Shown here piece by piece: positions 5,150 through 62,935 of a stretch of 64,000 bases of DNA. The DNA comes from a virus (taxonomy: Duplodnaviria; Heunggongvirae; Uroviricota; Caudoviricetes), in the IMG/VR virus record IMGVR_UViG_3300019935_000001, positions 36,145 to 100,144 of that record; one strand, 5' to 3'. Position 1 is the stretch's first letter. Each line of letters starts with the position of its first letter. The translations under genes and the position numbers were made by a program. The notes under the pieces are model-generated. The model had not been told where the DNA came from and did not search any database. It worked only from the letters and a program-made list of their open reading frames with translations.

Positions 5150-5169
5150 ATAAGTCAGCTATTACTTAT
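5150..5169. promoter_or_regulatory. dispersed palindrome ATAAGT-N8-ACTTAT (candidate operator/promoter element)
   Basis: ATAAGTCAGCTATTACTTAT, 20 nt upstream of the cobT-like ATG. Confidence 0.5.
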
Positions 5170-5188
5170 ATTAAAGACGAGAGCGAAT

Positions 5189-7360
5189 ATGAACGGAAAG
5201 CAAAAACGTATACAGGTGATCAGAGAAGCGATGCTCAAGGTGGCCCGAATTATGGCCGGTCGTGGAATCAAGATCACTCAGGCGGGCACTGGTGCTTTTG
5301 TTCGGTATAACAGTCACACTGGCTGTATCGAAAGGATCAACATTCCGATGATCCCGGACGATGCCAGCGAAGATTTGATCCACGCAACGCATGGTTTCCT
5401 GGATCACGAGATCGGGCATGTGCTTTTTACTGAGTACGAATGCTTTGCAAAAGCGAACAGGGCCAAATGCGGCGTCTTGTTCAACATTGCGGAAGACACC
5501 TATGTTGAGCGAATGATGCAGTCCGAGTTCACAGGTTCAATCAGTAACCTGGGCAAGTCATGCCAAATCATGACTGAAAGGTACATTGAGCCGAAGCTCC
5601 GGGAGCTGCTGGCGCACACCGTTCCAACCGAAAAGGATTGGTGGGGGCTGTTATGTGCAACCTCTATCCGGGCAATAGCCGGGCAGGAGCACTTCATCGA
5701 TTACATGAACCAGGACGATAAGTGGGATCTGATCCCGAACTTCGGAAAGGTTCTGCGAAAGCACGAAGCTGAGATCAAGGCGATCAGTAGTTCACAGGAT
5801 TCGTATGAAGTGGCATTGAAGATCAAACAGGACATGCTGGCAGCTGAGCCCGAGGAGCAGGACAGTGAGCCAGACCAGTCCGGCGGTGACGATCAGCAGA
5901 GCGGTGGAGAAGGTAAAGCTGAAAAGCCGCAGGGTGACAGTGAAGGCGAAACCGATGATGGCACCCGAGCAGACGATACCTTCTCGAAAGGTGAAGGTGA
6001 AAGCTCTGGCGAAGAAGAAAAAGATGATTCTTCTTCATCTAGTAGCAACACACAACATAACAAAGACAGTGAAGATGATGACCAGTCAGACGAATCGGAT
6101 GCTGATAGCGATGACTCAAAGGGCGAGTCCGGCAGTGCTGGCTCCGATAGCGCTGAAGAAGGTGATGGTGAATCCGACGAAGGCCCTGGTGCCGGTGATA
6201 GTTCGGGGGATGGTTCAGACGATGATGAAGACTCTGAATCAGAAGGCAGATCAGGGGGTGCAGGCTCGTCAGCTGGCGGCGATGACGCAGGTGAAGGCGG
6301 CGATAGCGAGATTGATGCAGATGATGTGATTAATGACCCGATGGCTCCGTTGCTGACTGAATCAGAGGTGGAGAGCATGGGTGAAGACTTCGACGATGCG
6401 ATGACAAAGGTTATCGGCGAGATGTCAGCTGATGCACTTAGAGGCTCTGAAGAATATGTGCCGTTCACACGCGACTGGGACGTTATCGAGCCACTGAAGC
6501 TATCAAGAAACTACGATCCGAATCTGGCCGACAAGGTTGCTGATACAGTCAATTACATGGTTGGCACGATGGCGAAAAGTCTGGAGCGTGCATTTCGTGC
6601 AGCCAACCGATCCCGCTGGGAAGGCGGTAAGAAGTCTGGCCGTATTAACAGCGCCGCACTATCCCGATTACTGGCAAACGACCCACGGGTGATGCGTACC
6701 CGCCAGGAGATGAAGACTCGTGATGTAGCTGTTTCTCTATTGGTGGACTGCTCCGGCTCTATGAGTGGGAAGAAGATGGAGGTTGCGTGTCAGACTGCGT
6801 GGGCGCTGGGCGAGGTGCTATCAAAGCTGAATTTGCCTTGTGAGATACTGGGGTTCACAACCTGCAGAATCAAAAACCAGTTCGACCATTTGGAGAAGGA
6901 GCTGGCTGATGTATTCCGTGACGGTACAGGTCAGCAATTCAGCAGGTTCGAGCCGATCTATATACCTATATTCAAATCATTTGATGAGCGGTTTGGTACG
7001 GCAGCTAAAGCACGCCTTGCGGATGCCGCATACGAGGGTATGCGGCGGAAGATGAACTGCAATATTGATGGCGAATCTCTGCTGTACGCAGCCGAGCGCC
7101 TGCGGAAGCGCCCGGAGCCAGGAAAGGTAATGATTGTGTTGTCAGACGGAGCCCCGGCCGGTGTAGGTAAACAACTTGAAGCTCACCTGAAGAAGGTGGT
7201 CAAAGATCTCAATACCGAAGGCATCAACACTGTCGGGATCGGCATCATGAGTCAGGCGGTGAGATCTTACTACCCCCGCCATGTAATCCTGAACAAAGTA
7301 GAGGACCTCCCAAAGGCAGTTGTAGGGGAGCTGCGGGAGGCAATTCTGGCGAAAGACTGA
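5189..7360 (+). CDS. cobT: CobT-like protein with C-terminal VWA domain
   Basis: 723 aa. MIDAS motif DCSGSMSG. About 160-aa D/E/S/G-rich acidic region (nt about 5843-6329). N-terminal HEIGH (HExxH) at nt 5405-5419. Paired with the CobS-like ATPase. Confidence 0.7.
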   Translation: MNGKQKRIQVIREAMLKVARIMAGRGIKITQAGTGAFVRYNSHTGCIERINIPMIPDDASEDLIHATHGFLDHEIGHVLFTEYECFAKANRAKCGVLFNIAEDTYVERMMQSEFTGSISNLGKSCQIMTERYIEPKLRELLAHTVPTEKDWWGLLCATSIRAIAGQEHFIDYMNQDDKWDLIPNFGKVLRKHEAEIKAISSSQDSYEVALKIKQDMLAAEPEEQDSEPDQSGGDDQQSGGEGKAEKPQGDSEGETDDGTRADDTFSKGEGESSGEEEKDDSSSSSSNTQHNKDSEDDDQSDESDADSDDSKGESGSAGSDSAEEGDGESDEGPGAGDSSGDGSDDDEDSESEGRSGGAGSSAGGDDAGEGGDSEIDADDVINDPMAPLLTESEVESMGEDFDDAMTKVIGEMSADALRGSEEYVPFTRDWDVIEPLKLSRNYDPNLADKVADTVNYMVGTMAKSLERAFRAANRSRWEGGKKSGRINSAALSRLLANDPRVMRTRQEMKTRDVAVSLLVDCSGSMSGKKMEVACQTAWALGEVLSKLNLPCEILGFTTCRIKNQFDHLEKELADVFRDGTGQQFSRFEPIYIPIFKSFDERFGTAAKARLADAAYEGMRRKMNCNIDGESLLYAAERLRKRPEPGKVMIVLSDGAPAGVGKQLEAHLKKVVKDLNTEGINTVGIGIMSQAVRSYYPRHVILNKVEDLPKAVVGELREAILAKD

Positions 7361-7471
7361 TTTACCTGTAAAAACAGAACAAGAAAGTTGAGTCCCCTTG
7401 CTCTGTTTTTTACAATGTAAGCTCTTACTTAGCAATTAAGTAGTAACGACACACTAGAGACGGACAGAAGA

Positions 7472-8683
7472 ATGACGACCAAAGCTATCAACTGCGAAAT
7501 CTGTGGCGCATCGGTTCACACGATCAAAAAGCACCTGCGTGACGAGCACGAAGAGTGGACTCTGGAAAAGTATCAGGAAGAGTTCCCGGACGCTCCAATC
7601 TTCTCTGAGCTGGCGCTGCGGAAGATTGAAGAGGCCCGCAGTAGAACAAAAGCATCGGTCACGCAACTGGCAGAAGCTAATCCGGCTCAGCAGATCATCG
7701 AGCAGCAGAGCGTTAAGGTCGGAAAGATCGAGATGGGCAAAGCGTTCCGTCTGGGCAACACGAAAGCGACAGTCTCCCAAAAGTCTGGAAACCCGATCAT
7801 GATCACTCAGCTGCAGCGGGATAGCGTCAACTCGCCAGATATGATCCCGGAGTTCGATGATGGCTATATCTTCGACATTGAAGTCCTGAAAACGCTGTTG
7901 ATGGGCATCGAGCTGAGCATTCCTACTTACCTGTATGGTCATGCCGGTTTGGGAAAATCAACCATCTTTGAGCAGATTGCATCTGTCACCAACCGCCCGA
8001 TTCGTCGTGTGCAGCATACGGTGAATACAGAGGAATCTCACATCGTTGGTCAGTACGTTGTGAATCATGTGGAAGACCCGAAGACGGGCGAGCTGAAGGC
8101 GAAGACTGAGTTCCAGCTCGGCGATCTGCCGCTGGCGATGATGAACGGTGAGATCTTCCTTGCCGACGAGTACGACCGTGCCTATCCGTCTGTACTGTCT
8201 GTATACCAGGCAGTGCTGGAGGGTAAGCCCCTGCATATCAAGGATGCACCCGAAGAGCTGCGCGTGATCAAACCACATCCGCAATTCAGATTCGTAGCGA
8301 CCGGCAACACAAACGGCGCAGGTGACGACACCGGCTTGTATCAGGCTACGGTCGTACAGGACGCTGCGACATTTGAACGCTTTGGAATCGTTGAACGCAT
8401 CGACTACATGCCGAAGAAGCAGGAGGTTGCAATACTCCGAGCCAAGACCGGTTTGCTGGAAGAAGACGCCTCGGACATCGTGAAGTTTGCTACGCATATC
8501 CGGAAAGACGCCTTCCCGAACGAAGTGTCTCTGACCATCGGCCCGCGTGTGCTACTGAATATTGCCCGCGTCGGTATCGCCCGATTCAACACGCTGAAAG
8601 GTATCGAGGTTGCATACGCGAACCGACTGCCGGAAGCCGAGCGCCAGGCTGCTATGAACTATGCGCAGCGGATCTTCGGCTAA
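7472..8683 (+). CDS. cobS: CobS-like / MoxR-type AAA+ ATPase
   Basis: 403 aa. Walker A GHAGLGKS, Walker B IFLADEYD. N-terminal CxxC..H..H (CEICGASVHTIKKHLRDEH). ACACACTAGAGAC leader 10 nt upstream. Confidence 0.8.
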   Translation: MTTKAINCEICGASVHTIKKHLRDEHEEWTLEKYQEEFPDAPIFSELALRKIEEARSRTKASVTQLAEANPAQQIIEQQSVKVGKIEMGKAFRLGNTKATVSQKSGNPIMITQLQRDSVNSPDMIPEFDDGYIFDIEVLKTLLMGIELSIPTYLYGHAGLGKSTIFEQIASVTNRPIRRVQHTVNTEESHIVGQYVVNHVEDPKTGELKAKTEFQLGDLPLAMMNGEIFLADEYDRAYPSVLSVYQAVLEGKPLHIKDAPEELRVIKPHPQFRFVATGNTNGAGDDTGLYQATVVQDAATFERFGIVERIDYMPKKQEVAILRAKTGLLEEDASDIVKFATHIRKDAFPNEVSLTIGPRVLLNIARVGIARFNTLKGIEVAYANRLPEAERQAAMNYAQRIFG

Positions 8684-8693
8684 GGAGCGCGTC

Positions 8694-9269
8694 ATGACAC
8701 GACCACAAAATGCACCAGGCTGTTACGGCGTGGGCATTGCCTCCATGAAGAGTCCTGTCTGTAAAGAATGCGCAGCTCGTGAGGGTTGCGCAGAACGAGC
8801 TGTAGAGAACCTGCAGCTCGCTTCCGAGACGGTTGATGTAACCGATTACCTCGCAGTACATGGCCTGGCGCCAAAGCATAAGGGCGAGATGCCCCGCCAC
8901 TATCTAGCAAAGGTGAAAGTCCGGAAGGCGACTCAGCAGGAGCTGAGCATGTTCACAACTATGCCCGCAAAGGCTCGATCCATTGCAGAGTCATTGGTGA
9001 AGAAGAACATCTGTCTTCACACGAGCCTATCAACGAACCAGAACCCCTTTAACACAAACAAACCTCAGTACCTGAAGCCCGTATTCGACATGATACTGAA
9101 CTCCGGGGCGGTGTCCCGCCGCTCGATTATCGACGCGATCCGCTTATCTGGCAGCTCTGCTGCAACTCAGCGATCTCAGCTGTCAACTGCAATAGGGCTA
9201 CTGGAAGGCACCGGAGTCCTGATCAGAGATGGCGCTGAAAATTACAAGGTAGCAAACCGTGACATTTAA
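8694..9269 (+). CDS. hypothetical protein (Cys-rich N-terminus)
   Basis: ATG at 8694 preceded by AAGGAG; the track ORF starts at 8661 inside cobS. Contains CYG..CKECAAREGC. Confidence 0.5.
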   Translation: MTRPQNAPGCYGVGIASMKSPVCKECAAREGCAERAVENLQLASETVDVTDYLAVHGLAPKHKGEMPRHYLAKVKVRKATQQELSMFTTMPAKARSIAESLVKKNICLHTSLSTNQNPFNTNKPQYLKPVFDMILNSGAVSRRSIIDAIRLSGSSAATQRSQLSTAIGLLEGTGVLIRDGAENYKVANRDI

Positions 9270-12660: not shown

Positions 12661-12905
12661 AGATCTATGTGAAAATTGTAGTAATGATCCTGCTGTTTGT
12701 GTCAATGGTATCATCTCTACAGCTCAGTATTGCCGTGGCCACGTTTGTGGCATCGGGTATTGTAAGCGGGTTGGTATTTGGCGTGATGCCGGGCGGTGAC
12801 AACCGATACCTTTGCAAGTTTATAGTGTTGTGCGCAGCTGTAATGGCTTACTGGGGCATGATTGTTACCTTGGTTATTCTCGCTTCTTTATACCTAAATA
12901 AATAA
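12657..12905 (+). CDS. small membrane protein
   Basis: 82 aa, strongly hydrophobic (2-3 predicted TM segments). Start overlaps the dnaE stop (ATGA). Confidence 0.55.
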   Translation: MKIYVKIVVMILLFVSMVSSLQLSIAVATFVASGIVSGLVFGVMPGGDNRYLCKFIVLCAAVMAYWGMIVTLVILASLYLNK

Positions 12906-12917
12906 GTCAGAACTTAC
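12902..12917. promoter_or_regulatory. short-spacer variant of the dispersed palindrome (TAAGT-N4-ACTTA)
   Basis: AATAAGTCAGAACTTAC overlapping the stop codon of the preceding gene. Confidence 0.35.
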
Positions 12918-12921
12918 TTTT

Positions 12922-12960
12922 AATCGACGCTGCTTTTTATTAGTATAAGCAGCGTCGATT
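12922..12960 (+). other. 14-bp-stem hairpin in the leader of the next gene
   Basis: AATCGACGCTGCTT - 11-nt loop - AAGCAGCGTCGATT. Followed by the ACACACACGAGAGAC leader. Confidence 0.5.
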
Positions 12961-12986
12961 GAGACAACACACACGAGAGACAAGCT

Positions 12987-13612: not shown

Positions 13613-13632
13613 ATAAGTCAGATCTTACTTAT
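13613..13632. promoter_or_regulatory. dispersed palindrome ATAAGT-N8-ACTTAT
   Basis: ATAAGTCAGATCTTACTTAT(AAT), 64 nt upstream of the SSB gene. Confidence 0.5.
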
Positions 13633-17070: not shown

Positions 17071-18372
17071 GGAGGGTGTTCACCGTTCTGTGTCACCGTT
17101 TTATTCACAGGTCGACATACTGGTCGATTCTGTCAGGGAAGTGGATGCTCAGCTGAGACAGCGTGAGGTTCCAGTTCTGCACTGGATGCGTCCACTTCTC
17201 TGAGGCCCTCAATATGCCCGCATAGAGCAGCTTCAGCAGGCTGTTTTCATTGGCGAAGCCACCCTTGGTTTTGGTCAGTTTCCGGAACTGACGGTGCACG
17301 GCCTCAACTGCATTGGTCGTGTAGATCGCACGCCTTACCTGTTCCGGGTACTTGAAGTACACCGACAGGTTCTCCCACTTGCTACGCCATGACTTGATGA
17401 CCAGCGGGTACTGTTTCCCCCACTTTGCCTCCAGCTCGTCCAGCGCCTGCTCTGCGGCGTTTCGCGTCGCCGCCTTGTAGACGCATTTCAGATCCACCAT
17501 AAATGCCTTCTGATTCTTGCTGGCGACGTACTTCATGGAGTTGCGGATCTGGTGAACAATACACAGCTGTACTTCTGTTTCCGGATAGATGCTTTCGATC
17601 GCTTCAGGAAAGCCTTTCAGACCATCCACAGAGGCAATAAGGATGTCTTTCAGACCTCGATTCTGCAGATCTGTCAGGACGCTGAGCCAGTAATGTGCAC
17701 CTTCATTTTCAGACAGATAGAGTCCCAGCAGCTCCTTCTTACCTTCGATGGTTAGCCCAAGAATGGTGTACACCGCTTTGGAGATGAAACGACCATTCTC
17801 TTTCACTTTGTAGTGAATGGCATCCAGCCAGACAAAAGGGTATACCGGCTCCAGATCACGCTCTTGCCAGGCTTTAAGCTCCGGCACCAGGCGATCAGTT
17901 ACGGCGTTAATCATGCCGTTGGAGACGCTCATACCGTACATTTCACAGATATGGTCACGGATGTTCTGGTAACTGCTGCCTAATGCAAACAGAGACAGTA
18001 TCTTGCCTTCCATTTCATCAGTCAGACGGGTCTGATATTTCCTGACAGTCTGGGGCTCAAATGAGCCATTGCGATCTCTCGGCGTCTCCAGCTCGAACTC
18101 GCCAGCAGCGGTTTTGACTGTTTTCTTTGAGGTGCCATTTTTCCGATTGGCGGCCGGATTTTCTGCAAGGTGCTCATCAATCTCTGCACCCAATGCGGCT
18201 TCAGTGATCTGTTTGATCAGTGGTGTCAGGAGGCCATCCTTGCCATTGAGGTTCTGTCCAGATTGCAGCGCTTTGGCAAACGCCTGAATATCGATTTCGT
18301 ACTTGTCAGACATGATGTGTCGCTCCCCGTTTCACTCAGTGTAGGAAACGACACAGAACTCTGAACACTACC
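17071..18372 (-). mobile_element. IS256-family insertion sequence (about 1.3 kb)
   Basis: Single Mutator-type transposase gene. Imperfect terminal inverted repeats: GGTGTTCACCGTTCTGTGTC (about 17075-17094) versus the reverse complement of GACACAGAACTCTGAACAC (18350-18368). No target-site duplication could be identified. Confidence 0.7.
17105..18313 (-). CDS. IS256-family (Mutator-type) transposase
   Basis: 402 aa. Typical family N-terminus (GKDGLLTPLIKQITEAALGAEIDEHL) and core (WLDAIHYKV, VDGLKGFPEAI, CIVHQIRNS). Confidence 0.9.
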   Translation of the reverse strand: MSDKYEIDIQAFAKALQSGQNLNGKDGLLTPLIKQITEAALGAEIDEHLAENPAANRKNGTSKKTVKTAAGEFELETPRDRNGSFEPQTVRKYQTRLTDEMEGKILSLFALGSSYQNIRDHICEMYGMSVSNGMINAVTDRLVPELKAWQERDLEPVYPFVWLDAIHYKVKENGRFISKAVYTILGLTIEGKKELLGLYLSENEGAHYWLSVLTDLQNRGLKDILIASVDGLKGFPEAIESIYPETEVQLCIVHQIRNSMKYVASKNQKAFMVDLKCVYKAATRNAAEQALDELEAKWGKQYPLVIKSWRSKWENLSVYFKYPEQVRRAIYTTNAVEAVHRQFRKLTKTKGGFANENSLLKLLYAGILRASEKWTHPVQNWNLTLSQLSIHFPDRIDQYVDL

Positions 18373-19214: not shown

Positions 19215-19745
19215 ATGATTGATACCAATGTCAGAGCAGTAAAGCCGAGTGAGTCCGGGTGGTCGCTATCTGTTGACCGGGATCTCTGTGGGCACTGCGG
19301 GAAACAAAGCACCTGTGAGTCACTGGGCTCCTTGAACAGCTGGCGAGAACAGCATGGGCAAACTATTCGCCTGAAAGAGTGCGGCGGGTACTCATATCCG
19401 ATTCTGTTTGTAGATCCGACAGGCACCGATGGCGAGTTCAACACGATCCGCCTGGGTGAAGCCTGGGCTGGCCGCCTGAGTCCGGGGGTAGAGGTCACGC
19501 TGATAGATAAGCCGGGTAATGTGCTGGGCACAGCGGTGGTAGAGCGGGTACATACGGGAGACAAGGAGGAGGTGATTCGAGAGCACGCCTACCAGAACCA
19601 CCTGTATGTAGAGTCAGGCATGGGGCAGGAGGAGGCCGGTGCTGACCTGCTGAGAAGACTGCCGAGCATTTATGGCAACCTGATTATGAAAAGCAACACG
19701 CGAGCCACAGTAATCTACCTCAAGAACAAGGATCTATTAAAGTAA
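19215..19745 (+). CDS. hypothetical protein
   Basis: 176-aa ORF with AAGGATGAACA upstream of the ATG. Contains CGHCG...C. Confidence 0.5.
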   Translation: MIDTNVRAVKPSESGWSLSVDRDLCGHCGKQSTCESLGSLNSWREQHGQTIRLKECGGYSYPILFVDPTGTDGEFNTIRLGEAWAGRLSPGVEVTLIDKPGNVLGTAVVERVHTGDKEEVIREHAYQNHLYVESGMGQEEAGADLLRRLPSIYGNLIMKSNTRATVIYLKNKDLLK

Positions 19746-19761
19746 GGGCTTACTTATCAAT

Positions 19762-19908: not shown

Positions 19909-19944
19909 GTAAGTCAGAGCTTATAAACTTATGCTCTGACTTAC
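19909..19944. promoter_or_regulatory. extended form of the dispersed palindrome (12-bp arms)
   Basis: GTAAGTCAGAGC-N12-GCTCTGACTTAC, 25 nt upstream of sbcD. Confidence 0.5.
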
Positions 19945-19968
19945 ACACGCACACAGAGGGGACAGAAA

Positions 19969-25003: not shown

Positions 25004-25393
25004 CTATGACTTGTCGTTGACCCCGAAGAGACCTTTAAGGATGAAGCCAACCAGCCCGACGACGATTGTCATCGAGGTTAGCATAGCTAAGGCTACGGTC
25101 TCAGGTATGGGTAAGTTAAGCTTCACCTGATGGTTCATGTAATAGAGCAGGCCAAACACTACAACCACGCACCACCAACACATGAAAAGAAATACGTGTC
25201 TTGCGAGATCTTCTTTCAATCGATTGTTCGTATGCTGCCCTTCAGCATGAGCGCGTGTAAGCGCTGCATTCGCTTTGGCCTGCACATAGTTGTAATCATG
25301 CCCTTGCTCGTTAAGTACAGACCCTTCTGTTTCCTGGACCTGTCGAGGGCTGTTGGAGCCCGCTCTGCCTCCTGCAAATGGCCCTTCTGTCAC
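25004..25393 (-). CDS. small membrane protein, candidate toxin partner of the Panacea-domain protein
   Basis: 129 aa with two C-terminal hydrophobic helices. Start overlaps the upstream gene's stop (ATGA). Confidence 0.5.
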   Translation of the reverse strand: MTEGPFAGGRAGSNSPRQVQETEGSVLNEQGHDYNYVQAKANAALTRAHAEGQHTNNRLKEDLARHVFLFMCWWCVVVVFGLLYYMNHQVKLNLPIPETVALAMLTSMTIVVGLVGFILKGLFGVNDKS

Positions 25394-27355: not shown

Positions 27356-27375
27356 ATAAGTAGTAACTGACTTAT
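27356..27375. promoter_or_regulatory. dispersed palindrome ATAAGT-N8-ACTTAT
   Basis: ATAAGTAGTAACTGACTTAT, 27 nt upstream of the nrdA ATG. Confidence 0.5.
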
Positions 27376-30862: not shown

Positions 30863-30904
30863 CAGCGCTTAGTTGTTAGTATCTTCATTAGTAACTAAGC
30901 GCTG
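30863..30904 (+). terminator. 12-bp-stem hairpin after nrdB
   Basis: CAGCGCTTAGTT - 18 nt - AACTAAGCGCTG, running into a GACTTAC motif. Confidence 0.4.
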
Positions 30905-30932
30905 ACTTACTAACTAAGACAGAAGAAAAATC

Positions 30933-35288: not shown

Positions 35289-35341
35289 CATCCATAGCTT
35301 ACTTATTGAGACACCAGTATCTGATCTTTAGAATGCTTTAT

Positions 35342-35361
35342 ATAAGTAAGCTATTACTTAC
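35342..35361. promoter_or_regulatory. dispersed palindrome (ATAAGT-N8-ACTTAC)
   Basis: ATAAGTAAGCTATTACTTAC, 27 nt upstream of the next ATG. Confidence 0.45.
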
Positions 35362-37643: not shown

Positions 37644-37750
37644 TCACCACGCGCCAACCGAGATTCACCATAGTCAGATCTCTATCATGTGCAACATCTG
37701 CTGAGCAACGAAGCAAACAGTAGCACTATGCACACATAGAGGATTGAAAG

Positions 37751-38707: not shown

Positions 38708-38727
38708 ATAAGTCAGTTATAACTTAT
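38708..38727. promoter_or_regulatory. dispersed palindrome ATAAGT-N8-ACTTAT
   Basis: (G)ATAAGTCAGTTATAACTTAT(C) in a 290-bp AT-rich intergenic region. A second CTTACTTATATAAT half-copy lies at about 38779-38792. Confidence 0.5.
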
Positions 38728-38825
38728 CACGCAATAAATTATTAATATAAATTTGTATGTTTTCTTTTGTTTGTACTAACTTACTTATATAATAAATTCT
38801 CTAACACACACAGAGACAGACCGAA

Positions 38826-40851: not shown

Positions 40852-40926
40852 TACTCACCTTAGTCAATTTGAGAGAATTACATTGTCAGAGCTGACTTAG
40901 CTTTTGCACACATACAGGAGCAAACT

Positions 40927-49213: not shown

Positions 49214-49502
49214 CCAGGGAGCCGCAGGGATGCGGTTTTGCCTTCAAATCGGGTAGGTTTACCTTGGCAACACCTCCCAAGACCCTCGCTTCACTGCAGG
49301 CAAAGACAGTCTTCCTAAACGTGGCTACGTGCACGTATGAGGTCGTCACAGGATTACCTGCATCATTTGCTGTCTGACAGATCAAGTCCCGTCATATGGC
49401 CCCCTATGTGGCTTCTGAGAGGTCTTCCAGCCGCCAGATCTGATTCGCTATAGCAGTGTTGATAAAATGTAAGCTCAAACTTACAAACACATAGAAACTG
49501 CT

Positions 49503-49745: not shown

Positions 49746-50328
49746 TGGAGCAGGGTGCAGGGATGCACCTGGTAAGGCCAGACAGGGTAGGTGAACCAGA
49801 GGAGTGAGGCAGGTCAACCTTCGGCAATTAGGGCAGCCACAGGTTCGCCAGGATTTGCCATGGCAACATTTTTTTTATAAGGCTCGCCAAACCAGGAATG
49901 GTTCGAGGTCTAAAACGGGAAAGGTGCGAAACAGAGGTGCACCTGCGGGCGTCCCGTGATCGGGCGCGGGCGTGCGGGGGCATCGCGTGTCTGCATCGGG
50001 GCGTGTGATCCGTACCCGTCTGCGATCAGGCGTGCGGCGCGTTTGTGTGTGGGGTCGGTGTCTGCTGTATCGTTTCGTGTTCTCCGTGTTGCCGTTGACT
50101 TAGGAGCTATTCTACAGCATTCGGTTTTCAGCGCAACACTTTTTTAATAAAAATTTGTTGCGCCGCTTTTTAGCAACAGGGGCTTGGCCCCCTTGCCCTT
50201 TAGAGAACGTTCCAGTCAAATGCGAACGTTTCGTAATTATGTACCTCTTCGCTGATGCGGTGCCAGTAAACGAAGTGATCCCAGAGCGTCGCTACCTGCG
50301 CCTCTCGCATCCCGGTTGCTTCCGCAAT

Positions 50329-50490: not shown

Positions 50491-50730
50491 ATTCTGTCTC
50501 TATATGTGTGTTGTGTCCGGGCACCGTGCCCCGACTGCATGTGCATATTAATAAGCTCTGACTTACTTTGCAACTCTTTTTAGATAAATAAAAAACAAAA
50601 AAATATTAAAAAAGTGTTGCGTTAAAAAATGGATTCGGTACTATACATCACATCGGCGACACGGGGAGCACATAGCCCGGCCCGATGTCAAACGTGACCA
50701 AAAAACTGAATCAGACAGAGAGTAGAAATT

Positions 50731-52076: not shown

Positions 52077-52098
52077 GTTTTACCGTCTCCTGTTGAAT

Positions 52099-52118
52099 AT
52101 AAGTCAGAACTGACTTAT
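52099..52118. promoter_or_regulatory. dispersed palindrome ATAAGT-N8-ACTTAT
   Basis: ATAAGTCAGAACTGACTTAT. Confidence 0.5.
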
Positions 52119-52235
52119 AGTAGGCTTGTTCCGTTCGGAACGTTCAAAACTGTACTACTCTGTCTGTAGCCACCTGAATAAGGTGGCCCATTTTTTCTGC
52201 TTTTGTGCCGTCTCAGTTGCCTGAGAAAGGCGTGA

Positions 52236-52829
52236 TCAGGGCGACTCGCCTTTCTCACCAATCAAAGGGTGCACATGTCGATAGTATGATGACCTGCTGA
52301 TCTCAAATTCACTGCACACATTGGCAATGGACTCGTCCGGGTTAGCAGAAACATACGCCGCAATTGCGCGACGTCGCTCCTTTGATAGAACTTTGGGGCG
52401 CCCACCCACGCGTCCCCTTGCTCTCGCAGATTCCAGACCAGCTTTGGTTCTTTCCTTCAATCGACTCACTTCAAGCTCTGCGAGCGCAGCGAACATATGG
52501 AAGATGAACTGGCCTGTTGGTGTGGTGGTATCGAACTTTTCCGTGGTCGATACAAAGTGAAGCTCTCTTCGTTTAAGCTCCATGGTTGTAGACACAAGAT
52601 CAATGAGCGAACGCCCCAACCGATCCAGTTTCCAAACGACGATGGCGTCCCCGGGTCTTGCAAACTCCAGCATTTCATCAAAGACCTGTCGTGACCAGGT
52701 AGAGCTGGTGCCCGTCACCTTCTCTACGAATACTTTCTCAACGCCTTCTCGCTCGAAGGCATCCAGCTGCAAAAGCAACTTCTGGTCGTCAGAAGATACC
52801 CTTCCGTACCCGAGCTTCACACGCCGCAC
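52236..52829 (-). CDS. small serine recombinase (Hin/resolvase family)
   Basis: 197 aa. GYGRVSSDDQ (catalytic Ser), VVWKLDRLGRS, GRVGGRPK, C-terminal HTH. Confidence 0.9.
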   Translation of the reverse strand: MRRVKLGYGRVSSDDQKLLLQLDAFEREGVEKVFVEKVTGTSSTWSRQVFDEMLEFARPGDAIVVWKLDRLGRSLIDLVSTTMELKRRELHFVSTTEKFDTTTPTGQFIFHMFAALAELEVSRLKERTKAGLESARARGRVGGRPKVLSKERRRAIAAYVSANPDESIANVCSEFEISRSSYYRHVHPLIGEKGESP

Positions 52830-53592: not shown

Positions 53593-55095
53593 ATGTTGTA
53601 CCGGATTATTGTCGCCAAGGGTGCTAACTATGGCCGGGTGCTGGGAGCCCACGTTTCAGATTCCGCTGCAGGTCGTGCCCTGGGCAAAAACAAGCAGGAG
53701 TTTGGAACAGGCTCGGTACTACTAATCGAAACAGACGAGCGACTGGTGCAGGGTGTGTGTTACCCGGATGTTGCCGATCAGGGTATTGCCGATCATCACC
53801 ATAAGTCAGGTATGCGCCTGATGGAACTGGTCATTAAAAACCGGGCCACCGGTGAAGTGCCGGATTGGGTGATTGCCAGCATCATAGATGAAGGCTGGAC
53901 GATGGATTCGCTGAGCCAAGAGTTTGGGCCGCTGGTTCACCAGAAAATGGAGCAGGAGCGCCGCGAGCACCAGAAGCGGGCAGAGCGCTCTGCAATGATT
54001 CACGCAGGTCGCCTCTGGATGAAGAAAGAGATCGATGACCACGTTATCGAGCTGCCAGCCATTACAGGAACCCAAGCTCGCCGCCAATTCTTCACCGTTC
54101 AGATGACTCTGCAGCAGGTTGACCGGCTTTTGACTGCAGATCACAACGATCTGGCCCCTGAAGATCGCAGCCAGCGCAAACTGAACCCGGCACGGGGCAA
54201 AAAGCTGGGCGGGTACATTGTTGGGAACCACGACAGCTACGTTCTGCCGGCCATCACCGTCTGTATCGATCCGGATATGACCTTTGACCCGATTGAAGGG
54301 TTCGGCGGGGCAGTTGGCACCCTGAAAATACCGGTAACGTCTCTGGTCTATATCATTGACGGCCAGCACCGGCGTGAAGGTATCCGGTGGGCCTTGTCCG
54401 CTCAGTCGCTCCGCTGGCAGATGCAGAAGGAGACGATTGCGGTCACCATTTACTACGATGAAGGGCCTGAACGGCGTCAGCAGATGTTCTGTGACATCAA
54501 CTATCCAGCTGTCCGGGTGTCATCCTCTTTGAACATGCTCTACGACCGCCGAAACTCACTGAACCACTGGATTCTCGATATTTTGGCTAAAAATCAGTCA
54601 ATTTGGGGTCGAATTGAGCTGGATAGCGCGAGCGTAGGTGCCCAAAGTTCCAAATTGTGGGCCGTAGTCGCCATGAAGAAGGCTCTCCTCACGGTTTTGG
54701 GGTTGTCAGAAGTGCAATTTTTCACCAAAACCGATGAAAATCGGGCCGAAATGGAAAAGGTGGTCGATAGGTTCTTCGACACTCTGGCAGAATATCTGCC
54801 GCGCTGGGGCATGGTGATAGACCCGGATTGCTCCGCTCCGGACATCAGGAGCGACTATATTGTTGGCCACGCTGTTTTCCTGCAGGCGCTAGCTATCGTT
54901 GCCCGCAAAGCCCAGGAAGAAGAGGGCGGCTGGCAGAAGCTGTCCGGGCTGGCCAAGCTCGACGTAGCGCGAGATTCAGAAGTGTGGGAAGGTAAATGTG
55001 TCGTCAATGGAAGGATGAACCGGTCGGCAGCCGGGGCCAACGCCACTGCGGCAGAAATTTGTAGCCAGATTGGCATAGAAATGGACTGGAGTTGA
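53593..55095 (+). CDS. DGQHR-domain (DndB-like, ParB/Srx fold) protein with about 165-aa unknown N-terminal domain
   Basis: 500 aa. YIIDGQHRREGIRWAL and QQMFCDINYPAV (the DndB-family QxFxDxN motif). Confidence 0.75.
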   Translation: MLYRIIVAKGANYGRVLGAHVSDSAAGRALGKNKQEFGTGSVLLIETDERLVQGVCYPDVADQGIADHHHKSGMRLMELVIKNRATGEVPDWVIASIIDEGWTMDSLSQEFGPLVHQKMEQERREHQKRAERSAMIHAGRLWMKKEIDDHVIELPAITGTQARRQFFTVQMTLQQVDRLLTADHNDLAPEDRSQRKLNPARGKKLGGYIVGNHDSYVLPAITVCIDPDMTFDPIEGFGGAVGTLKIPVTSLVYIIDGQHRREGIRWALSAQSLRWQMQKETIAVTIYYDEGPERRQQMFCDINYPAVRVSSSLNMLYDRRNSLNHWILDILAKNQSIWGRIELDSASVGAQSSKLWAVVAMKKALLTVLGLSEVQFFTKTDENRAEMEKVVDRFFDTLAEYLPRWGMVIDPDCSAPDIRSDYIVGHAVFLQALAIVARKAQEEEGGWQKLSGLAKLDVARDSEVWEGKCVVNGRMNRSAAGANATAAEICSQIGIEMDWS

Positions 55096-55098
55096 GAT

Positions 55099-55344
55099 AT
55101 GGACACAATAGGCCGAATGGTGTCGCAGTGGGCGACTGAAGATAAGGAACAGATCAATGCGCTGGTTGAGCAGCATGGGGATCTGGTAGTGGAAGTCACC
55201 GGTGCCGACGATGGTTGTGTTTATGCCACCGCGGGCACCTATCGTCTGTCTCTGAACCCGGAGGCTGTCAACGAAGAGGTAGACAACAAGTCTATTAGCG
55301 ACATTCGCCACCTGATCCTGAAAGTGTACCCAACGGTCGATTAG
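55099..55344 (+). CDS. small acidic hypothetical protein
   Basis: 81 aa. Starts 4 nt after the DGQHR gene stop. The ATPase ATG follows 11 nt after its stop. Confidence 0.5.
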   Translation: MDTIGRMVSQWATEDKEQINALVEQHGDLVVEVTGADDGCVYATAGTYRLSLNPEAVNEEVDNKSISDIRHLILKVYPTVD

Positions 55345-55354
55345 ATTGGTAACA

Positions 55355-56185
55355 ATGAAAATCAGAAGACTGAAGATCAACAACTTCCGGGCATTCGGCC
55401 AGTTTGAATGCGAGTTCGAGCCTGGGATCACCGTTCTGACAGGGCTGAACAGCTCAGGAAAAACAGCGGTTCTGAAAGCCATCATCGTGGCAGCTGGCCA
55501 GGACAGAAAGATTCAGACTTCTGATATTCGCCAGACTCGTTCCTCTGCAGGTTCGGGTCTGATCTCTACAGAGCACCACCTTCCTGTGAACATTGAGGTG
55601 TGGGAAGACAGCGACACAGACCCGATCCTGGTCGCATCCCGTCAAAAGCTGAAAGGCAGAACCTCTCAAGCCGGATACATTGGCCCAATCTGCTACTACG
55701 ACAGTGGCAGGCGGAATATCGACAATCCCTCACCTGAATCCCTGGCCCTGGCCAGACAGGCACTGGACATCGTTCTGGAGCCTGTTGGCTGGAGCAACGT
55801 GCGGTACATTCCCGGTATCGATCAGATCTGTGCAGACCATGACGCTCAGGGTACAGCCCCAGTGGCCGCAATAGGTGGAATCGGAAGTGTCATTGATATG
55901 GTGGCCGGGATCGCCCAGCAGGGCAGCCAGCTGGCTTTGATCGACGGGATAGATTTACACCTGCACCCCAAATGGCAGCAGATGATCCTGCCTGGTCTGG
56001 CAGCGGCCTTTCCCGATCTGCAGCTTATCGTGACGACTCACAGCCCATTAGTGCTGTCTACTGTGAGCCGGAGTCAGATCCGGGTGCTTCCAGATTTCGG
56101 AAATGGAGAGTGCGCAACCGTCCCAGCATGTGAGACGCTGGGCAAAGCCTGCGACGACCTGCTCACTGAGGCGATGGGAAATTAA
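55355..56185 (+). CDS. compact ABC/RecF-like ATPase (AAA_15/21-like)
   Basis: 276 aa from the ATG at 55355. MKIRRLKINNFRAFG, Walker A GLNSSGKT, Walker B/H-loop LALIDGIDLHLHP, TTHSPLVL. Confidence 0.7.
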   Translation: MKIRRLKINNFRAFGQFECEFEPGITVLTGLNSSGKTAVLKAIIVAAGQDRKIQTSDIRQTRSSAGSGLISTEHHLPVNIEVWEDSDTDPILVASRQKLKGRTSQAGYIGPICYYDSGRRNIDNPSPESLALARQALDIVLEPVGWSNVRYIPGIDQICADHDAQGTAPVAAIGGIGSVIDMVAGIAQQGSQLALIDGIDLHLHPKWQQMILPGLAAAFPDLQLIVTTHSPLVLSTVSRSQIRVLPDFGNGECATVPACETLGKACDDLLTEAMGN

Positions 56186-57295: not shown

Positions 57296-58270
57296 TCAAG
57301 AAGAGGTTGATTCTTCCGCATCCGGTATGCGCTGCTCCAGATTCTTGATGGTTGCCAGGTGAGCCCGGATTTCTTCCTTCAATTGATCGACAGTTTCTCT
57401 GGCCTGATCCCGCTGGTTTGCTGCGATGTCGAGCCGGGTGTTCAGGCTGCTGATCTGCTCGCTCTGGCTATCGATACGCTCACTGAGACTTTTCTTAACC
57501 ATCTCGTGACCAGATGTCAGCTCAGCAAGTAGGGTCGCATGAGCGTCTTTGGTTTCGGCAAGGACTTGGCTGTGCATCTCTCTCAGCTCCTCCTTCTGGT
57601 CGGTCATGGCCATCTGGCGCTCTGTCTCCAGGGATCTGCAGTGCAGCTCGTGCTTTCCTGTTAGGTCTGCCAATTCATTCCGCGCTACCTGAAGCTGGGC
57701 CTCAGCGGTCTGTGCCCTGGCCTGCACCTTGTCGTGCCGCTCGCCCACTGTTTTGAGTTGCCCCTGCAGCTCGCTTATGGTGCGGAGATTGCCGCTCTCT
57801 GTACGTTGGAGCGCCTGCACTGCTGCCTCCCGCTCCTCTAACGTTTTGCCAAGGCTGTCTACTTTCGCCTCCAGCTCTGACACTGCATCAGCTGCATCAG
57901 AAAGCTCTGCCTCTGCACTCTCTTGCCTCTCGCGTGCATCCTTGACGGCCTCCGTTGTACGCCGCTCAGCGGTCATCACGGCGATATGGTTGACCCGGAC
58001 TGCCATCGCTCGCATCTGATCGCCCATGCCAGTGACCACTTCCTCAAGCGTCTCCATCACATCGACCGGAAGTTCATGCACCAGTTCAGCTTCTGCAGCT
58101 TCGCTGACCTCCCCAGTTTCGTGACCTTCCCAGATAGCCTTGATGCGCTGGACGTTTCCTCCACCCATGTGGTTTCGGATACCAAAAGCGGTGACGCGCT
58201 TACCCTCTTGCTGCAGCCGGACTCCGGCCTCCACGATCATGTCATCTGTAAATTCCGCTGGCCGTGCCAT
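57296..58270 (-). CDS. kfrA: KfrA-like protein (N-terminal DNA-binding domain plus long coiled coil)
   Basis: 324 aa. N-terminus FTDDMIVEAGVRLQQEGKRVTAFGIRNHMGGGNVQRIKAIWE. The rest is an A/E/Q-rich coiled coil. Confidence 0.65.
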   Translation of the reverse strand: MARPAEFTDDMIVEAGVRLQQEGKRVTAFGIRNHMGGGNVQRIKAIWEGHETGEVSEAAEAELVHELPVDVMETLEEVVTGMGDQMRAMAVRVNHIAVMTAERRTTEAVKDARERQESAEAELSDAADAVSELEAKVDSLGKTLEEREAAVQALQRTESGNLRTISELQGQLKTVGERHDKVQARAQTAEAQLQVARNELADLTGKHELHCRSLETERQMAMTDQKEELREMHSQVLAETKDAHATLLAELTSGHEMVKKSLSERIDSQSEQISSLNTRLDIAANQRDQARETVDQLKEEIRAHLATIKNLEQRIPDAEESTSS

Positions 58271-58282: not shown

Positions 58283-58322
<40 letters not shown>

Positions 58323-58355
58323 GTCATTGAGTGTAATGCCGACGGGAGAGGACAG

Positions 58356-59036
58356 CTAATTCCCTTGAGAGCGGCTTCTTTCTATCCTTCTACTGCGCTC
58401 TATCTCCCAATCATCAACAGGGTCTGACTTTGCCCAAGCATCAAACAGCTTTCGCTGCTTCTTGCTGATTCGAATCCCATACTTCTCTGACATATAAAAA
58501 TATGTCCGGGCTATATCCCCACGAATGTGGGGGGCTGGCTCAACAATTCTGGACTTGAAGTCAACTTCAACATCGCATGCGCCATATACGCGACGCTCAC
58601 CCGCGATCATTCCATATCGGTAGTTTGACCGATCACCATTAACTTCACCGATGGCCGGTACTAAATTGTACATGTCAGCCTCCATTTTCTTGAACCGGGC
58701 ATCTTTCCGACAGGCTTTTCGCCCCCCTTCTTGCCAACACTGTAATTGGTGACCAAATTCCCATGCAGGCACCAAATGCTCCCACTCTATCCGGGCCGCC
58801 CTCTTCGCTTGCTTTCGAGGTGTATAACCGCAGCTTTCCCAGTTTGGGGTCAGGTGTTTTCTGGAGCTCCCAGGCTTGTTCTTTAGGGAGTAATCACAGC
58901 CACAGTAGAACGAAACTTGATGGTCAGCATATATCTGCTTGGCGAGAATCTTTTTAGACTTAGAAAACGAGGGGTCTGCAGCTACCACTGAAGGTAGAGC
59001 AAACAAAATAATGCAGGTAACAATCTTAATCTTCAT
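58356..59036 (-). CDS. endA: secreted endonuclease I (EndA/Vvn family)
   Basis: Start at the ATG giving the signal peptide [57 protein letters not shown]. Confidence 0.85.
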
Positions 59037-59116
59037 CCAGCAGCCTTCCCTTATCCGCTCATTAGACAATCCTGTGCTGCAGTATAACCAAACGCGAATG
59101 TACTTCGAGCGGGCAC

Positions 59117-59140: not shown

Positions 59141-59205
59141 GTCAGGAATCGTAATGGCAAATCAGAAACGCATAGCAACAAACATCTGTGGTCGCAGGAC
59201 TAAAT

Positions 59206-59225
59206 ATAAGTCAGTTCTGACTTAG
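59206..59225. promoter_or_regulatory. dispersed palindrome (ATAAGT-N8-ACTTAG)
   Basis: ATAAGTCAGTTCTGACTTAG. Its centre is the inverse of the 52099 copy. Confidence 0.5.
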
Positions 59226-59248
59226 TTTCAAGCGACTTTTGTTGCCTA

Positions 59249-59722: not shown

Positions 59723-59734
59723 ATTATTTCCCTC

Positions 59735-60058: not shown

Positions 60059-60068
60059 AGGCTTTCTC

Positions 60069-61149: not shown

Positions 61150-62858
61150 ACGGCCTGGAAGCCGTACTTCTGAAAGTTGAAAGGTGCCTTGACGACGTTT
61201 TCGGCAAAGCCCGGTGTAGAGTTGACGATCTCCCGGCGGGCCATTGCGTGGCCTTTCAGGTGCTTGTTGTCGCCATCTTCAAAGTCGATGATGAAGCAGA
61301 CATTCGGGCCAGACTTCTTCGCTCGAAGGCCACGACCGATACGCTGGCGCATTGCCACTTCTGCTTTGCCACCACCGGCCAGAATCACCATTCCGACAGC
61401 AGGCACATCGACACCGACATCCAGGATGGTCGAACCGATCAGGACATCGATCCTTCCGGCTCCCAGATTGTCCAGGGAAGACTGGCGGCTATCCTGCCTG
61501 TGCTCACCACTGATGAACTCGGCGTTCAGCCCGGCTGCTTTCAGCATCTTCAGGAGGCGTTTGCCGTGGGCTGTGTGCTGGATCAGGATCATCACTGGCA
61601 GGCCGTACTTCTTAGCCCGCTGAGCTTCGGAAACGATGAAGGCATTCCGGCCGTCACTCTCAACCACACCGACCTTATAAGCCCGCTGCCAGGGTGTACC
61701 CCGGAACAGGGTTTTAGGTTTTTCAGCGCTGTGGTAGTAGAAATACGGTTTGGCCAGGATGCCTTTGTCGATCAGGTCTTTCTCGCTGATCTGAATGCCG
61801 ATAGGTCCGGTAACGGCCATAAGGCGCATGTTGGCCTCTTCGTCATCCTTCATGAACGGAGTGGCAGTCAGGGCCATCCTGTAAACAGCGTTATGGCACT
61901 GATTCAGGATGTCGTAGAAGCCGTTACCGGATACCTCGTGCGCTTCCTCCAGGGTCACAAACTCCATGGAGCGAAGGAACTCGATAGTTTCGGCACGGCG
62001 ATCAGCCTGACGTTGGACGGCGGCCTTGGCCTTTTTGGCAATCTCTTCGTGCGGGTACTTCGAGCGAACCTTCTTTTCGATGGACTGACGGTACGCTTTG
62101 ATCTGATCCCGAATGTGCTGAGGGGCAATCTTCAGGGCCTGATCGGACGTTGGCAGGTTTTTCTTCTTGAAAATGGTTTCGACAGTCTCTGTGACCTCTT
62201 TTTCGATGGCCTCCAGCTGCTTATCGACCTCCTTTTCAAAAGTCTTCTTCTCCAGTCGTGATGTCAGCGTATCCACGATGGCGAAGTTGATACCGGCCGG
62301 TTCCGGGTTCCACGTTCCGTCACCCAGGATGCCGATCGGTCGATTCTGCTCGCCCATTTGAGCGGCCATCTGGTACATCAGGGACTTCCGGGTCGTGATA
62401 AACAGAGTCGGTCGGTAGATGCGAGCACATGCAAGGCGGAAGATGCGGGACTTACCACCACCGGTGGCCACCCGGGCGATCATCGCCTTCAGATTCACCA
62501 GACGGCGAACCGTATCGAGCTGATATGCGTAGTTCGGATTCTCCGGGAAGTTATCGACCTTCGGGTTTTCCGGCCCCAGGGGCTCGGGAACCGACTTTCT
62601 GACAACCTTCGTGCGAACGCCGCGGGTTTCCAGCTTCTTTTTGATGTAGCGAACGAAGCCCGCCGGGAACGAATCCGTTTTCATCTGATAGAACGAGCTG
62701 TGACCGTCCCAGGAGCCGTTACTGAACATACTTGTGTGCTCGGCACCGGCCACCTTGTACGTCAGCAGATCACTGACGAGCAGACGCACATCGCGATCTG
62801 GGTTAACCAGCTTGGCGACAACTGCGTTGTGCTTGATTGTGGCGATTTTTCCTTTCAT
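61146..62858 (-). CDS. SF2 DEAD/DEAH-like DNA helicase
   Basis: 570 aa. Motif I ATGGGKS, motif II LEEAHE, motif III TATP, motif VI QRIGRGLR. Confidence 0.85.
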   Translation of the reverse strand: MKGKIATIKHNAVVAKLVNPDRDVRLLVSDLLTYKVAGAEHTSMFSNGSWDGHSSFYQMKTDSFPAGFVRYIKKKLETRGVRTKVVRKSVPEPLGPENPKVDNFPENPNYAYQLDTVRRLVNLKAMIARVATGGGKSRIFRLACARIYRPTLFITTRKSLMYQMAAQMGEQNRPIGILGDGTWNPEPAGINFAIVDTLTSRLEKKTFEKEVDKQLEAIEKEVTETVETIFKKKNLPTSDQALKIAPQHIRDQIKAYRQSIEKKVRSKYPHEEIAKKAKAAVQRQADRRAETIEFLRSMEFVTLEEAHEVSGNGFYDILNQCHNAVYRMALTATPFMKDDEEANMRLMAVTGPIGIQISEKDLIDKGILAKPYFYYHSAEKPKTLFRGTPWQRAYKVGVVESDGRNAFIVSEAQRAKKYGLPVMILIQHTAHGKRLLKMLKAAGLNAEFISGEHRQDSRQSSLDNLGAGRIDVLIGSTILDVGVDVPAVGMVILAGGGKAEVAMRQRIGRGLRAKKSGPNVCFIIDFEDGDNKHLKGHAMARREIVNSTPGFAENVVKAPFNFQKYGFQAV

Positions 62859-62915
62859 TTCGGGCCTGTCTGGTGTCTGGACGCCTTGCCATTGGAAAGG
62901 CTTATAGAAATAATA

Positions 62916-62935
62916 GTAAGTCAGTCCTTACTTAT
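62916..62935. promoter_or_regulatory. dispersed palindrome (GTAAGT-N8-ACTTAT) in a divergent intergenic region
   Basis: GTAAGTCAGTCCTTACTTAT. 27 nt upstream of the 62962 ATG and 58 nt from the helicase ATG. Confidence 0.5.

Follow-up and report, generated by a model that had tools for sequence, protein, structure and literature searches.

A dispersed palindrome in an SSU5-type phage-plasmid is probably the operator of a single prophage repressor

The DNA analysed here, referred to as the window, is a 64,000-nucleotide stretch of the metagenomic caudovirus record IMGVR_UViG_3300019935_000001 (positions 36,145 to 100,144). In the gaps between its genes, it carries many copies of a 20-bp palindrome, ATAAGT-N8-ACTTAT (ATAAGTNNNNNNNNACTTAT). 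We consider it probable that this palindrome is the operator of one phage-plasmid repressor, a 144-aa helix-turn-helix (HTH) protein encoded on the minus strand at 4068-4502. A first-pass annotation of the same DNA had left three options unranked, namely operators of a global repressor, a phage-specific or N4-like promoter, and RNA-processing hairpins. The first of these is favoured by the character of the palindrome as a site for a dimer on double-stranded DNA, its overlap with promoters, a co-occurring syntenic HTH gene, and a homologue of this gene that is described as a putative lysogeny repressor in the phage-plasmid Cyrano. The other two options are not supported.

Occurrence and form of the palindrome

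The repeated 20-bp palindrome is real. Exact copies occur five times in the window, at 5150, 13613, 27356, 38708 and 52099, against 0.00 expected from 100 dinucleotide shuffles. With up to two mismatches, there are 12 matches, compared to 1.03 expected and 4 in the most prolific shuffle. Copies with one mismatch, at 35342, 59206 and 62916, complete the eight that the first-pass annotation had listed with 6-bp arms, and its variants at 12902 and 19742 were recovered in the two-mismatch set as 12902 and 19738. A weight matrix built from the copies of the mismatch scan and run over the window yielded 20 sites, which include every earlier coordinate and, as new members, 4619, 4666, 4802, 30891 and 38769. 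An extended form at 19909-19944 and variants at 7413, 40881, 49465 and 50547 (earlier given as 7415, 40880, 49465 and 50549) were found as had been described. The earlier list began at 5150, and there is indeed a site, but the regulon begins further upstream, with 4619, 4666 and 4802.

All copies had been described as intergenic. Indeed, none of the 20 sites overlaps confidently called genes by 50% or more, although 73% of the window is coding (binomial p = 5e-12), and two sites (12902 and 19738) touch a gene end. The nearest start codon, said to be 20-27 nt away in seven cases, was measured at 18-26 nt from eight sites (5150, 27356, 30891, 35342, 40881, 49465, 52099 on the minus strand, and 62916), so that the earlier statement was essentially right. 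Rather than in the 6+8+6 form, the conserved unit is better drawn as an 18-mer, TAAGT(C/A)AG-NN-CT(G/T)ACTTA, or T-M-A-G-T-M-A-G-NN-C-T-K-A-C-T-K-A, in which each half-site consists of two tandem T-M-A-G tetramers. The spacing of the half-sites is invariant in the window and in every lineage examined.

The motif in related phage-plasmids

Its gene content identifies the window as that half of a metagenomic phage-plasmid of the SSU5/RHEph10 type which is devoted to replication and nucleotide metabolism. The gene order runs from a Rep-like HTH protein, ParB, ParA, a CobT-like protein, a CobS-like ATPase and a fusion of DnaE with a uracil-DNA glycosylase, through a gp32-like single-stranded DNA-binding protein (SSB), a 5'-3' exonuclease, a RecA-like protein, SbcD, SbcC, ribonucleotide reductase (RNR) and ThyA, to a long run of small open reading frames (ORFs), a helicase and a ParB-domain protein. 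The same order is found in Salmonella phage SSU5, in Rhizobium phage RHEph10 and in 111-kb Aeromonas plasmids, with protein identities of about 35-48%. The window sequence is also present in metagenome assemblies (longest contig 102,745 bp). A megablast search with 20 kb of the window found no phage match, and plasmids matched only in an IS256 transposase and a short stretch of dnaE. No close relatives were found in this way.

The more distant relatives carry the motif in lineage-specific variants. There are 25 sites in the Aeromonas plasmid pKAM329_1 (0.6 expected; TCAGTAAGnnTTTACTGA), 36 in RHEph10 (TCAGTCAATATTGACTGA or TAAATCAATATTGATTTA), about 20-25 in SSU5 (TAAGTAAGTACTTACTTA or TAGGTAAGnnCTTACCTA) and 7 in 34 kb of an Acinetobacter baumannii plasmid (TTAGTAAGCGCTTACTAT), and loci with a GC content from 41% to 65% have several sites each with the same motif skeleton. 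The gaps that carry sites are orthologous: they lie before cobT, between cobT and cobS (RHEph10 38555, Aeromonas 41538 and 41596, Acinetobacter 12964), before the genes for SSB, SbcD, RNR and ThyA, and between the helicase and ParB-like genes, where window site 62916 has counterparts at RHEph10 106197, SSU5 99799, Aeromonas 90378 and in 13-15 IMG/VR loci. In Aeromonas and RHEph10, sites also precede the capsid, portal and tail genes. Nickie-like phages have no site in the 23 kb around dnaE. The motif is thus a family trait of the SSU5 supergroup, with lineage variants at orthologous positions across very distant relatives.

The 16 specified bases occur exactly in 112 IMG/VR stretches. Single contigs of about 116 kb have several copies of the form TAAGTCAGnnCTGACTTA, and share about 64-70% nucleotide identity with the window, only in the most conserved genes. 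Logos of the flanks of all IMG/VR exact-match sites, a set that mixes unrelated phage families including a marine group, contain almost no information outside the 18-mer. TAnnnT at the arm end is found in 37-39% of the IMG/VR sites, a modest excess over the roughly 25% expected by chance. The separate, mostly marine group (L002, L008, L009, L029, L045, L049, L050, L053, L062, L064 and similar loci) has the 18-mer near RNR genes in a highly conserved flank, …CACGTAAAGCAACA…TAAGTCAGnnCTGACTTA…GAGGTGTTAAGCAC…, and this context is possibly coding or RNA.

The palindrome as a double-stranded DNA site

A palindrome may act as DNA or as a folded nucleic acid. For the variable half-site positions in four genomes, we compared how often the left and right halves have the same base with the expectation for halves dealt independently. 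There were 168 matched left/right bases against 194.9 expected, and no position was convincingly enriched. In 6 of about 13 window sites (e.g. 5150, 12902, 13613, 62916 and 30891), a C-type half is combined with an A-type half, which breaks the stem. The minimum free energies of the RNA are between -0.1 and -4.6 kcal/mol for most copies and -8.6 kcal/mol for 52099, Rfam has no match for the palindrome, and there is no U-tract. Base identity is conserved rather than pairing, from 41% to 65% GC. Since the half-sites vary independently and the RNA hairpins are weak, we infer that the palindrome is a double-stranded DNA site for a dimeric DNA-binding protein, with two half-sites at fixed spacing.

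A function as an RNA or single-stranded DNA hairpin, be it for RNase processing, for stabilisation of a 5' or 3' end, for antitermination of the nut/boxB kind or as a hairpin promoter like those of N4, would agree with the location of copies in 5' leaders near ribosome-binding sites and, in some relatives, between a stop codon and a terminator. It would also agree with the folding of the extended form 19909-19944, in which the half-sites TAAGTCAG and CTGACTTA, 18 nt apart, make a perfect 11-bp stem with a 12-nt loop (-21 kcal/mol) that ends 24 nt before the sbcD ATG, and of 52099. The lack of compensatory pairing, the mixed half types and the weak folding of most copies, together with the use of both orientations relative to genes (52099, 59206), nevertheless make a hairpin function very improbable, and the earlier suggestion of RNA-processing hairpins is not supported by the covariation, folding and Rfam results.

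Sites within and next to sigma-70-like promoters

The first-pass annotation had judged the element to be unlike a sigma-70 promoter. This is misleading, because the palindrome lies inside or adjoins sigma-70-like promoters (52099, 59206, 13613 and 5150). Promoters were found by sigma-70 consensus scans, and their starts are predicted rather than mapped. The perfect site at 52099..52118 (ATAAGTCAGAACTGACTTAT) is the 17-bp spacer of the plus-strand promoter 52093..52121 (TTGAAT-17-TATAGT), and lies 22 nt upstream of a minus-strand ATG at 52076. Likewise, the site at 59206..59225 (ATAAGTCAGTTCTGACTTAG, one mismatch) fills the spacer of the minus-strand promoter 59203..59231 (TTGAAA-17-TATATT), behind which sits the gene of an endonuclease-I-like nuclease (58356-59069, minus strand). 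Both promoters match the sigma-70 consensus in 9-10 of 12 positions. About 45 nt beyond the promoter at 52093 there is a strong intrinsic terminator (52169-52187 and a T-run), and the segment 52093-52195 is predicted to give a transcript of about 65 nt, either a small RNA or a cassette like lambda pR'-tR'.

At two other sites, the palindrome begins at about the predicted start of promoters that match 10 of 12 consensus positions. The promoter 35306..35334 (plus strand, TTGAGA-17-TAGAAT) has its predicted start at the first base of site 35342..35361 (ATAAGTAAGCTATTACTTAC), 26 nt from the ATG at 35388. The promoter 62886..62914 (plus strand, TTGCCA-17-AATAAT) has its predicted start inside the left arm of site 62916..62935, in the gap between the divergent helicase and ParB-like genes and 26 nt from the ATG at 62962. 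A promoter toward cobT at 4577..4606 (plus strand, TTGATC-18-TAGAAT) has site 4619 just downstream of its predicted start.

Elsewhere, the right arm runs into a -10-like hexamer. This is TATAAT at 13613..13632, where exact arms precede the gene of the gp32-like SSB and the right arm with its flank, ACTTATAAT, contains a perfect -10. It is TATATT (ACTTATATT) at 5150..5169, with exact arms 19 nt from the cobT ATG (5189), TATAAA at 27356..27375, with exact arms 26 nt from the ATG of the RNR large subunit (27402), and TATAGT at 62916. In SSU5, the palindrome is flanked by TTGAAA-17-TATGAT or TATCAT, in Acinetobacter and Aeromonas the palindrome-promoter layout is CTTACTATAAT, and in RHEph10 the 18-mer is preceded, at a distance of one base, by a TTGnnn.

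Where a good -10 adjoins the right arm and a -35 is missing, the palindrome could also be a positive element that takes the place of the -35. Its ligand would then be a phage activator, which could be the same HTH protein, in an activating or dual role, or another factor. Many copies have this structure (13613 with ACTTATAAT, 5150 with ACTTATATT), as do sites in Acinetobacter and Aeromonas (CTTACTATAAT) and most SSU5 sites. The centre of the palindrome is then near -20, close to the geometry of P1 late promoters, and in Aeromonas and RHEph10 structural as well as early genes are preceded by sites. However, a dimer at about -29 to -10 would overlap the region that RNA polymerase must occupy, the spacer is the optimal 17 bp where a -35 exists, not the 19-20 bp of the MerR type, and other copies are at +1 of complete promoters (35342, 62916). 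Moreover, SSU5 grows lytically without the HTH protein, and in the Cyrano lysogen, whose phage genes are silent, the homologue is expressed (PMC9928086). We therefore regard an activator site as improbable.

Recognition by a phage-encoded sigma factor or RNA polymerase would be suggested by the short and fairly fixed distance of a conserved 18-20-mer from start codons in the window, and by a sigma-70-family protein of RHEph10 that is encoded between cobS and dnaE. Two-fold symmetric, independent half-sites are unlike the promoters read by sigma factors or single-subunit polymerases, though, and in relatives the ATG may be as close as 7 nt or more than 100 nt away. Among the annotated records examined, a sigma-family gene was found in RHEph10 only, and a phage RNA polymerase in none. 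Such a promoter is most unlikely, and the phage-specific or N4-like hairpin promoter of the first-pass annotation is not supported. The window ORF in the position of the RHEph10 sigma gene (8661-9269) was tried as a sigma factor and rejected, as it has no similarity, no Pfam or NCBIfam match, and no homologues.

The remaining sites are of varied quality. A variant at 7413..7432 (CAATGTAAGCTCTTACTTAG) lies between cobT and the gene of the cobS-like ATPase. The site at 12902..12921, after dnaE, is followed by a hairpin with a 14-bp stem and then by a gene at 12987, and the one at 19738..19757 (TAAAGTAAGGGCTTACTTAT) is at the end of the ORF 19332-19745. The site at 30891..30910 (GTAACTAAGCGCTGACTTAC), absent from the earlier list, is 22 nt from an ATG at 30933. 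Exact arms at 38708..38727 head the long run of small ORFs, and are followed at 38769..38788 by one good half (CTTACTTA) that runs into TATATAAT. There are variants at 40881..40900 (CATTGTCAGAGCTGACTTAG; 26 nt to the ATG at 40927), and weak ones at 49465..49484 (AAATGTAAGCTCAAACTTAC; 18 nt to the ATG at 49503) and 50547..50566 (ATTAATAAGCTCTGACTTAC).

Directly upstream of many Shine-Dalgarno sequences and start codons there is a CA-rich leader (ACACACAnAGAGAC...), found at 37732, 40908, 42414, 44748, 46835, 50491 (minus strand), 12960-12986 and 19945-19968. It is a shared translation-initiation region.

The candidate repressor and the search for the binder

The product of the gene at 4068..4502 has an HTH of the Cro/CI (XRE) type and a C-terminal helical domain. 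In BLASTP searches, it matched RHEph10 gp041 (7e-15), the Cyrano protein CYRAN_45, a 'putative repressor' (3e-11), and an 'HTH transcriptional regulator' of Aeromonas pKAM329_1 (4e-07). An Acinetobacter regulator belongs to the same profile family (profile E = 6e-28), and all four homologues are encoded directly upstream of cobT. An exhaustive HMMER search found 223 relatives; in a word-indexed homology search, the 144-aa protein and a 191-aa protein matched only themselves. The family is of the HTH_3/HTH_19 type, with a Pfam HTH_3 match in 28 of 46 aligned members. The AlphaFold (AF2) model has a pLDDT (predicted local distance difference test) score of 93, and comprises a five-helix XRE domain and three C-terminal helices. 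Foldseek matched it to ClgR, the C-proteins C.Esp1396I and C.AhdI, the N-terminal domain of lambda cI, and HigA.

The 690-bp gap between the 144-aa gene and the divergent cobT operon contains four sites of graded quality. In addition to 5150, these are degenerate sites at 4619..4638 (GTAAATCAGCACCTACTAAC, in the repressor-cobT gap, weight-matrix score 30.4), 4666..4685 (reverse complement ATAAGGCAGAACTGACAAAC, from the weight matrix) and 4802..4821 (ATAAGTTTGCTCTTACAATC, also from the weight matrix). Copies of the motif flank homologues of the candidate repressor in 14 other loci. The same gap holds a small plus-strand ORF of 66 aa (4900..5100), which, judged by gene layout, shares its position with CYRAN_46 of Cyrano and a 60-aa ORF of the Acinetobacter plasmid. 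The layout of integrase, HTH gene on the minus strand, small ORF and cobT is shared by the E. coli phage-plasmid Cyrano (L204, 42188-43137) and the A. baumannii plasmid (L205, NZ_CP046537.1 87717-88994).

Sites and regulator tend to occur together. Three or more sites were counted in 11 of the 18 DnaE-anchored IMG/VR loci that encode the regulator, compared to 1 of the 27 that lack it (Fisher p = 3e-5; Mann-Whitney p = 4e-5), the loci being mutually related so that these p-values overstate independence. Nickie-like loci lack both the motif and a homologue of the 144-aa protein. The LF82 study lists CYRAN_45 as one of the genes that Cyrano expresses as a prophage, and marks it as the putative master repressor (PMC9928086). 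Homologues of the 144-aa protein are encoded by 865 PLSDB plasmids, from Klebsiella, E. coli, Enterobacter, Yersinia pestis, Salmonella and Acinetobacter. SSU5 has no such homologue and has kept its site-bearing promoters. The protein is thus dispensable for lytic expression, which fits a repressor better than an activator. The int-repressor block is missing from this locus in SSU5, in keeping with a virulent derivative. From this sequence-based comparison, we infer that the sites are bound by the 144-aa protein, which would repress transcription and serve as the maintenance repressor of lysogeny.

It is doubtful that the binder is instead some other conserved phage protein or a host factor that is not linked to cobT. 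Examples would be the ParB-domain protein 62962-63648 in a KorB-like role, the KfrA-like protein 57296-58270, or a weakly sigma-r4-like ORF at 39438-39869. In favour of another binder, SSU5 keeps its sites without the HTH homologue, some regulator-positive loci have few sites, the ParB-like gene always has a copy in front, and plasmid RK2 has in KorB a global repressor of the ParB family whose palindromic operators are dispersed. However, the lineage-specific motif variants, in hosts from Rhizobium to Acinetobacter, are difficult to reconcile with a single host factor, and the ORFs 39438-39869 and 57296-58270 have no tblastn match in the SSU5, Aeromonas and RHEph10 genomes. The ParB-like protein was rejected: it has no HTH domain in Pfam, the true parS appears to be another palindrome located elsewhere, and nickie-like phages encode the protein but have no site in their 23-kb replication regions, so that it should not be the binder.

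The other palindrome is a 22-bp sequence, TTTGTCGTACCGGTACGACAAA, with five identical copies at 1411-1786, located at the 3' end of parB (1601-2659, minus strand) and immediately beyond it. The parAB operon spans 1601-3826 on the minus strand, and the cluster is very likely its parS centromere.

Other features of the window

Several observations concern the replicon rather than the palindrome. The Rep-like HTH_36 gene (175-1305, minus strand) contains, at 699-814, three direct repeats of about 24 nt (CATAGTCGCGGATAGTCGCG...), which could represent iterons or an origin. An imperfect inverted repeat of 52 nt (50108-50159 and 50594-50645, 75% complementary) surrounds 434 bp, and a serine invertase gene (52236-52829, minus strand) lies 1.6 kb away; the arrangement may mark an invertible segment. 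An IS256-family transposase gene (17105-18313, minus strand) between the recA-like and sbcD modules is 81% identical in nucleotide sequence to a copy on a Photobacterium plasmid, a hint at a marine gammaproteobacterial host. The accessory genes include those for a DndB-like protein beside an AAA ATPase (53593-56185) and for a SocA/Panacea-domain antitoxin-like protein (25390-25920, minus strand).

Discussion

In the mechanism that we propose, the 144-aa protein would bind as a dimer, with one subunit per half-site TAAGT(C/A)AG. Almost every transcription unit would be led by a promoter with an operator in its spacer, over its -10 or at its +1, about 20 operators in all, and some operators would be just upstream of ribosome-binding sites. 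While the element persists as a plasmid prophage, filled operators would exclude or block host RNA polymerase. Autoregulation would take place through the weaker sites in the gap that separates the repressor gene from the divergent cobT operon.

Several observations weigh against the assignment to a single repressor. The -35 is unrecognisable at many sites, and some are without any -10. Several Aeromonas and RHEph10 sites end just 7-12 nt before the ATG. Other sites follow a stop codon and precede a terminator-like hairpin (12902, RHEph10 7573 and many in IMG/VR, where the copies often lie between a gene end encoding '...GITNI*' and the terminator), a placement that is not explained by simple promoter occlusion. 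In the extended hairpin 19909-19944, the half-site spacing is wrong for a dimer and incompatible with a standard operator. Seven regulator-positive loci (L125, L131, L132, L138, L147, L162 and L176) have few or no pattern matches, and the retention of sites in SSU5, which has no detectable HTH homologue, would also fit a different binder. A comparison of recognition helices with half-sites across lineages gave no clean pattern of covariation, and the putative binder was assigned by synteny and co-occurrence, neither of which is independent of phylogeny. The copies near start codons and terminators and the extended form suggest roadblocks or another role.

A more radical arrangement may be considered. 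The palindrome could define a dedicated class of promoters without a -35, located at about -29 to -10 and fused to TATAAT, for nearly all genes of SSU5-type elements, early and late, while extra copies before ribosome-binding sites, or located from stop codon to terminator, would be elongation roadblocks. One Cro/CI-type protein would then be both occluder and 'stoperator' protein, and possibly a surrogate of the -35 in another state. We consider this arrangement unlikely. If true, it would be a one-protein, one-site switch for a 100-kb genome, with no lambda-style cascade.

Dispersed operators of one prophage repressor are not a new principle, as they are known from P1, L5 and phiC31. The C1 protein of P1 is also the single repressor of a plasmid prophage, with operators scattered over a genome of about 100 kb at the heads of separate operons. 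The C1 operators are asymmetric 17-bp sites with the consensus ATTGCTCTAATAAATTT, bound by a monomeric protein that is not of the XRE family, whereas the site described here is a symmetric 18-20-mer of unrelated sequence, and its candidate binder is a Cro/CI-type HTH_3 protein. The sites of the relatives also precede structural genes, unlike in P1, where late genes are controlled through Lpa. P1 late promoters consist of a -10 and a palindrome near -22, and depend on Lpa. A similar geometry is seen at 13613, 5150, 27356 and 62916 and in Acinetobacter and Aeromonas, with other copies at +1 of complete promoters.

The stoperators of L5 and Bxb1, bound by gp71-type repressors, resemble the palindrome in number and location: a single repressor site is repeated about 20-30 times over the genome, in short intergenic gaps. 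Many are near start or stop codons and not at obvious promoters, which fits the sites found 7-12 nt before an ATG or after a stop codon. Stoperators are asymmetric 13-bp sites in one orientation relative to transcription. In contrast, the sites described here are palindromic, and several are exactly in promoter spacers. The conserved inverted repeats (CIRs) of phiC31 are similar as highly conserved repeats of about 17 bp that occur not only at the repressor gene but also by early promoters in many intergenic regions, but the sequence is different, phage lineage and repressor family are unrelated, and phiC31 integrates and has no plasmid state.

With respect to the protein, the candidate is most readily compared to the lambdoid cI and Cro repressors, P22 c2 and the C-proteins of restriction-modification systems. 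It shares the fold of their DNA-binding domains, according to Foldseek, and they bind palindromic operators as dimers, as is proposed here. The divergent arrangement of the repressor gene and an early operon, with graded operators in between (4619-5150), is also lambdoid-like. However, lambdoid repressors act through two operator clusters and a cascade, whereas here sites are found in about 20-36 separate places, and the candidate has a small helical domain in its C-terminal part instead of an S24 peptidase domain. KorB of RK2 offers a further parallel, with palindromic operators over many operons of a plasmid. The candidate binder is not a ParB protein, unlike KorB, and the ParB-domain proteins of the window are otherwise accounted for, by parS at 1411-1786 and by motif-less phages.

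A search of the published literature found no description of this operator or its regulon for the SSU5 supergroup, and searches with motif sequence strings gave chance matches only. SSU5-type phage-plasmids are very common and carry resistance genes and toxins, and their lysis-lysogeny control is essentially uncharacterised. The analysis provides a repressor candidate, an operator consensus in several lineages, and a genome-wide list of predicted targets, which may help in predicting immunity groups, in engineering induction and in annotating promoters in the SSU5-type family. The same pair of candidate repressor and site is found across this large and clinically common family of plasmids.

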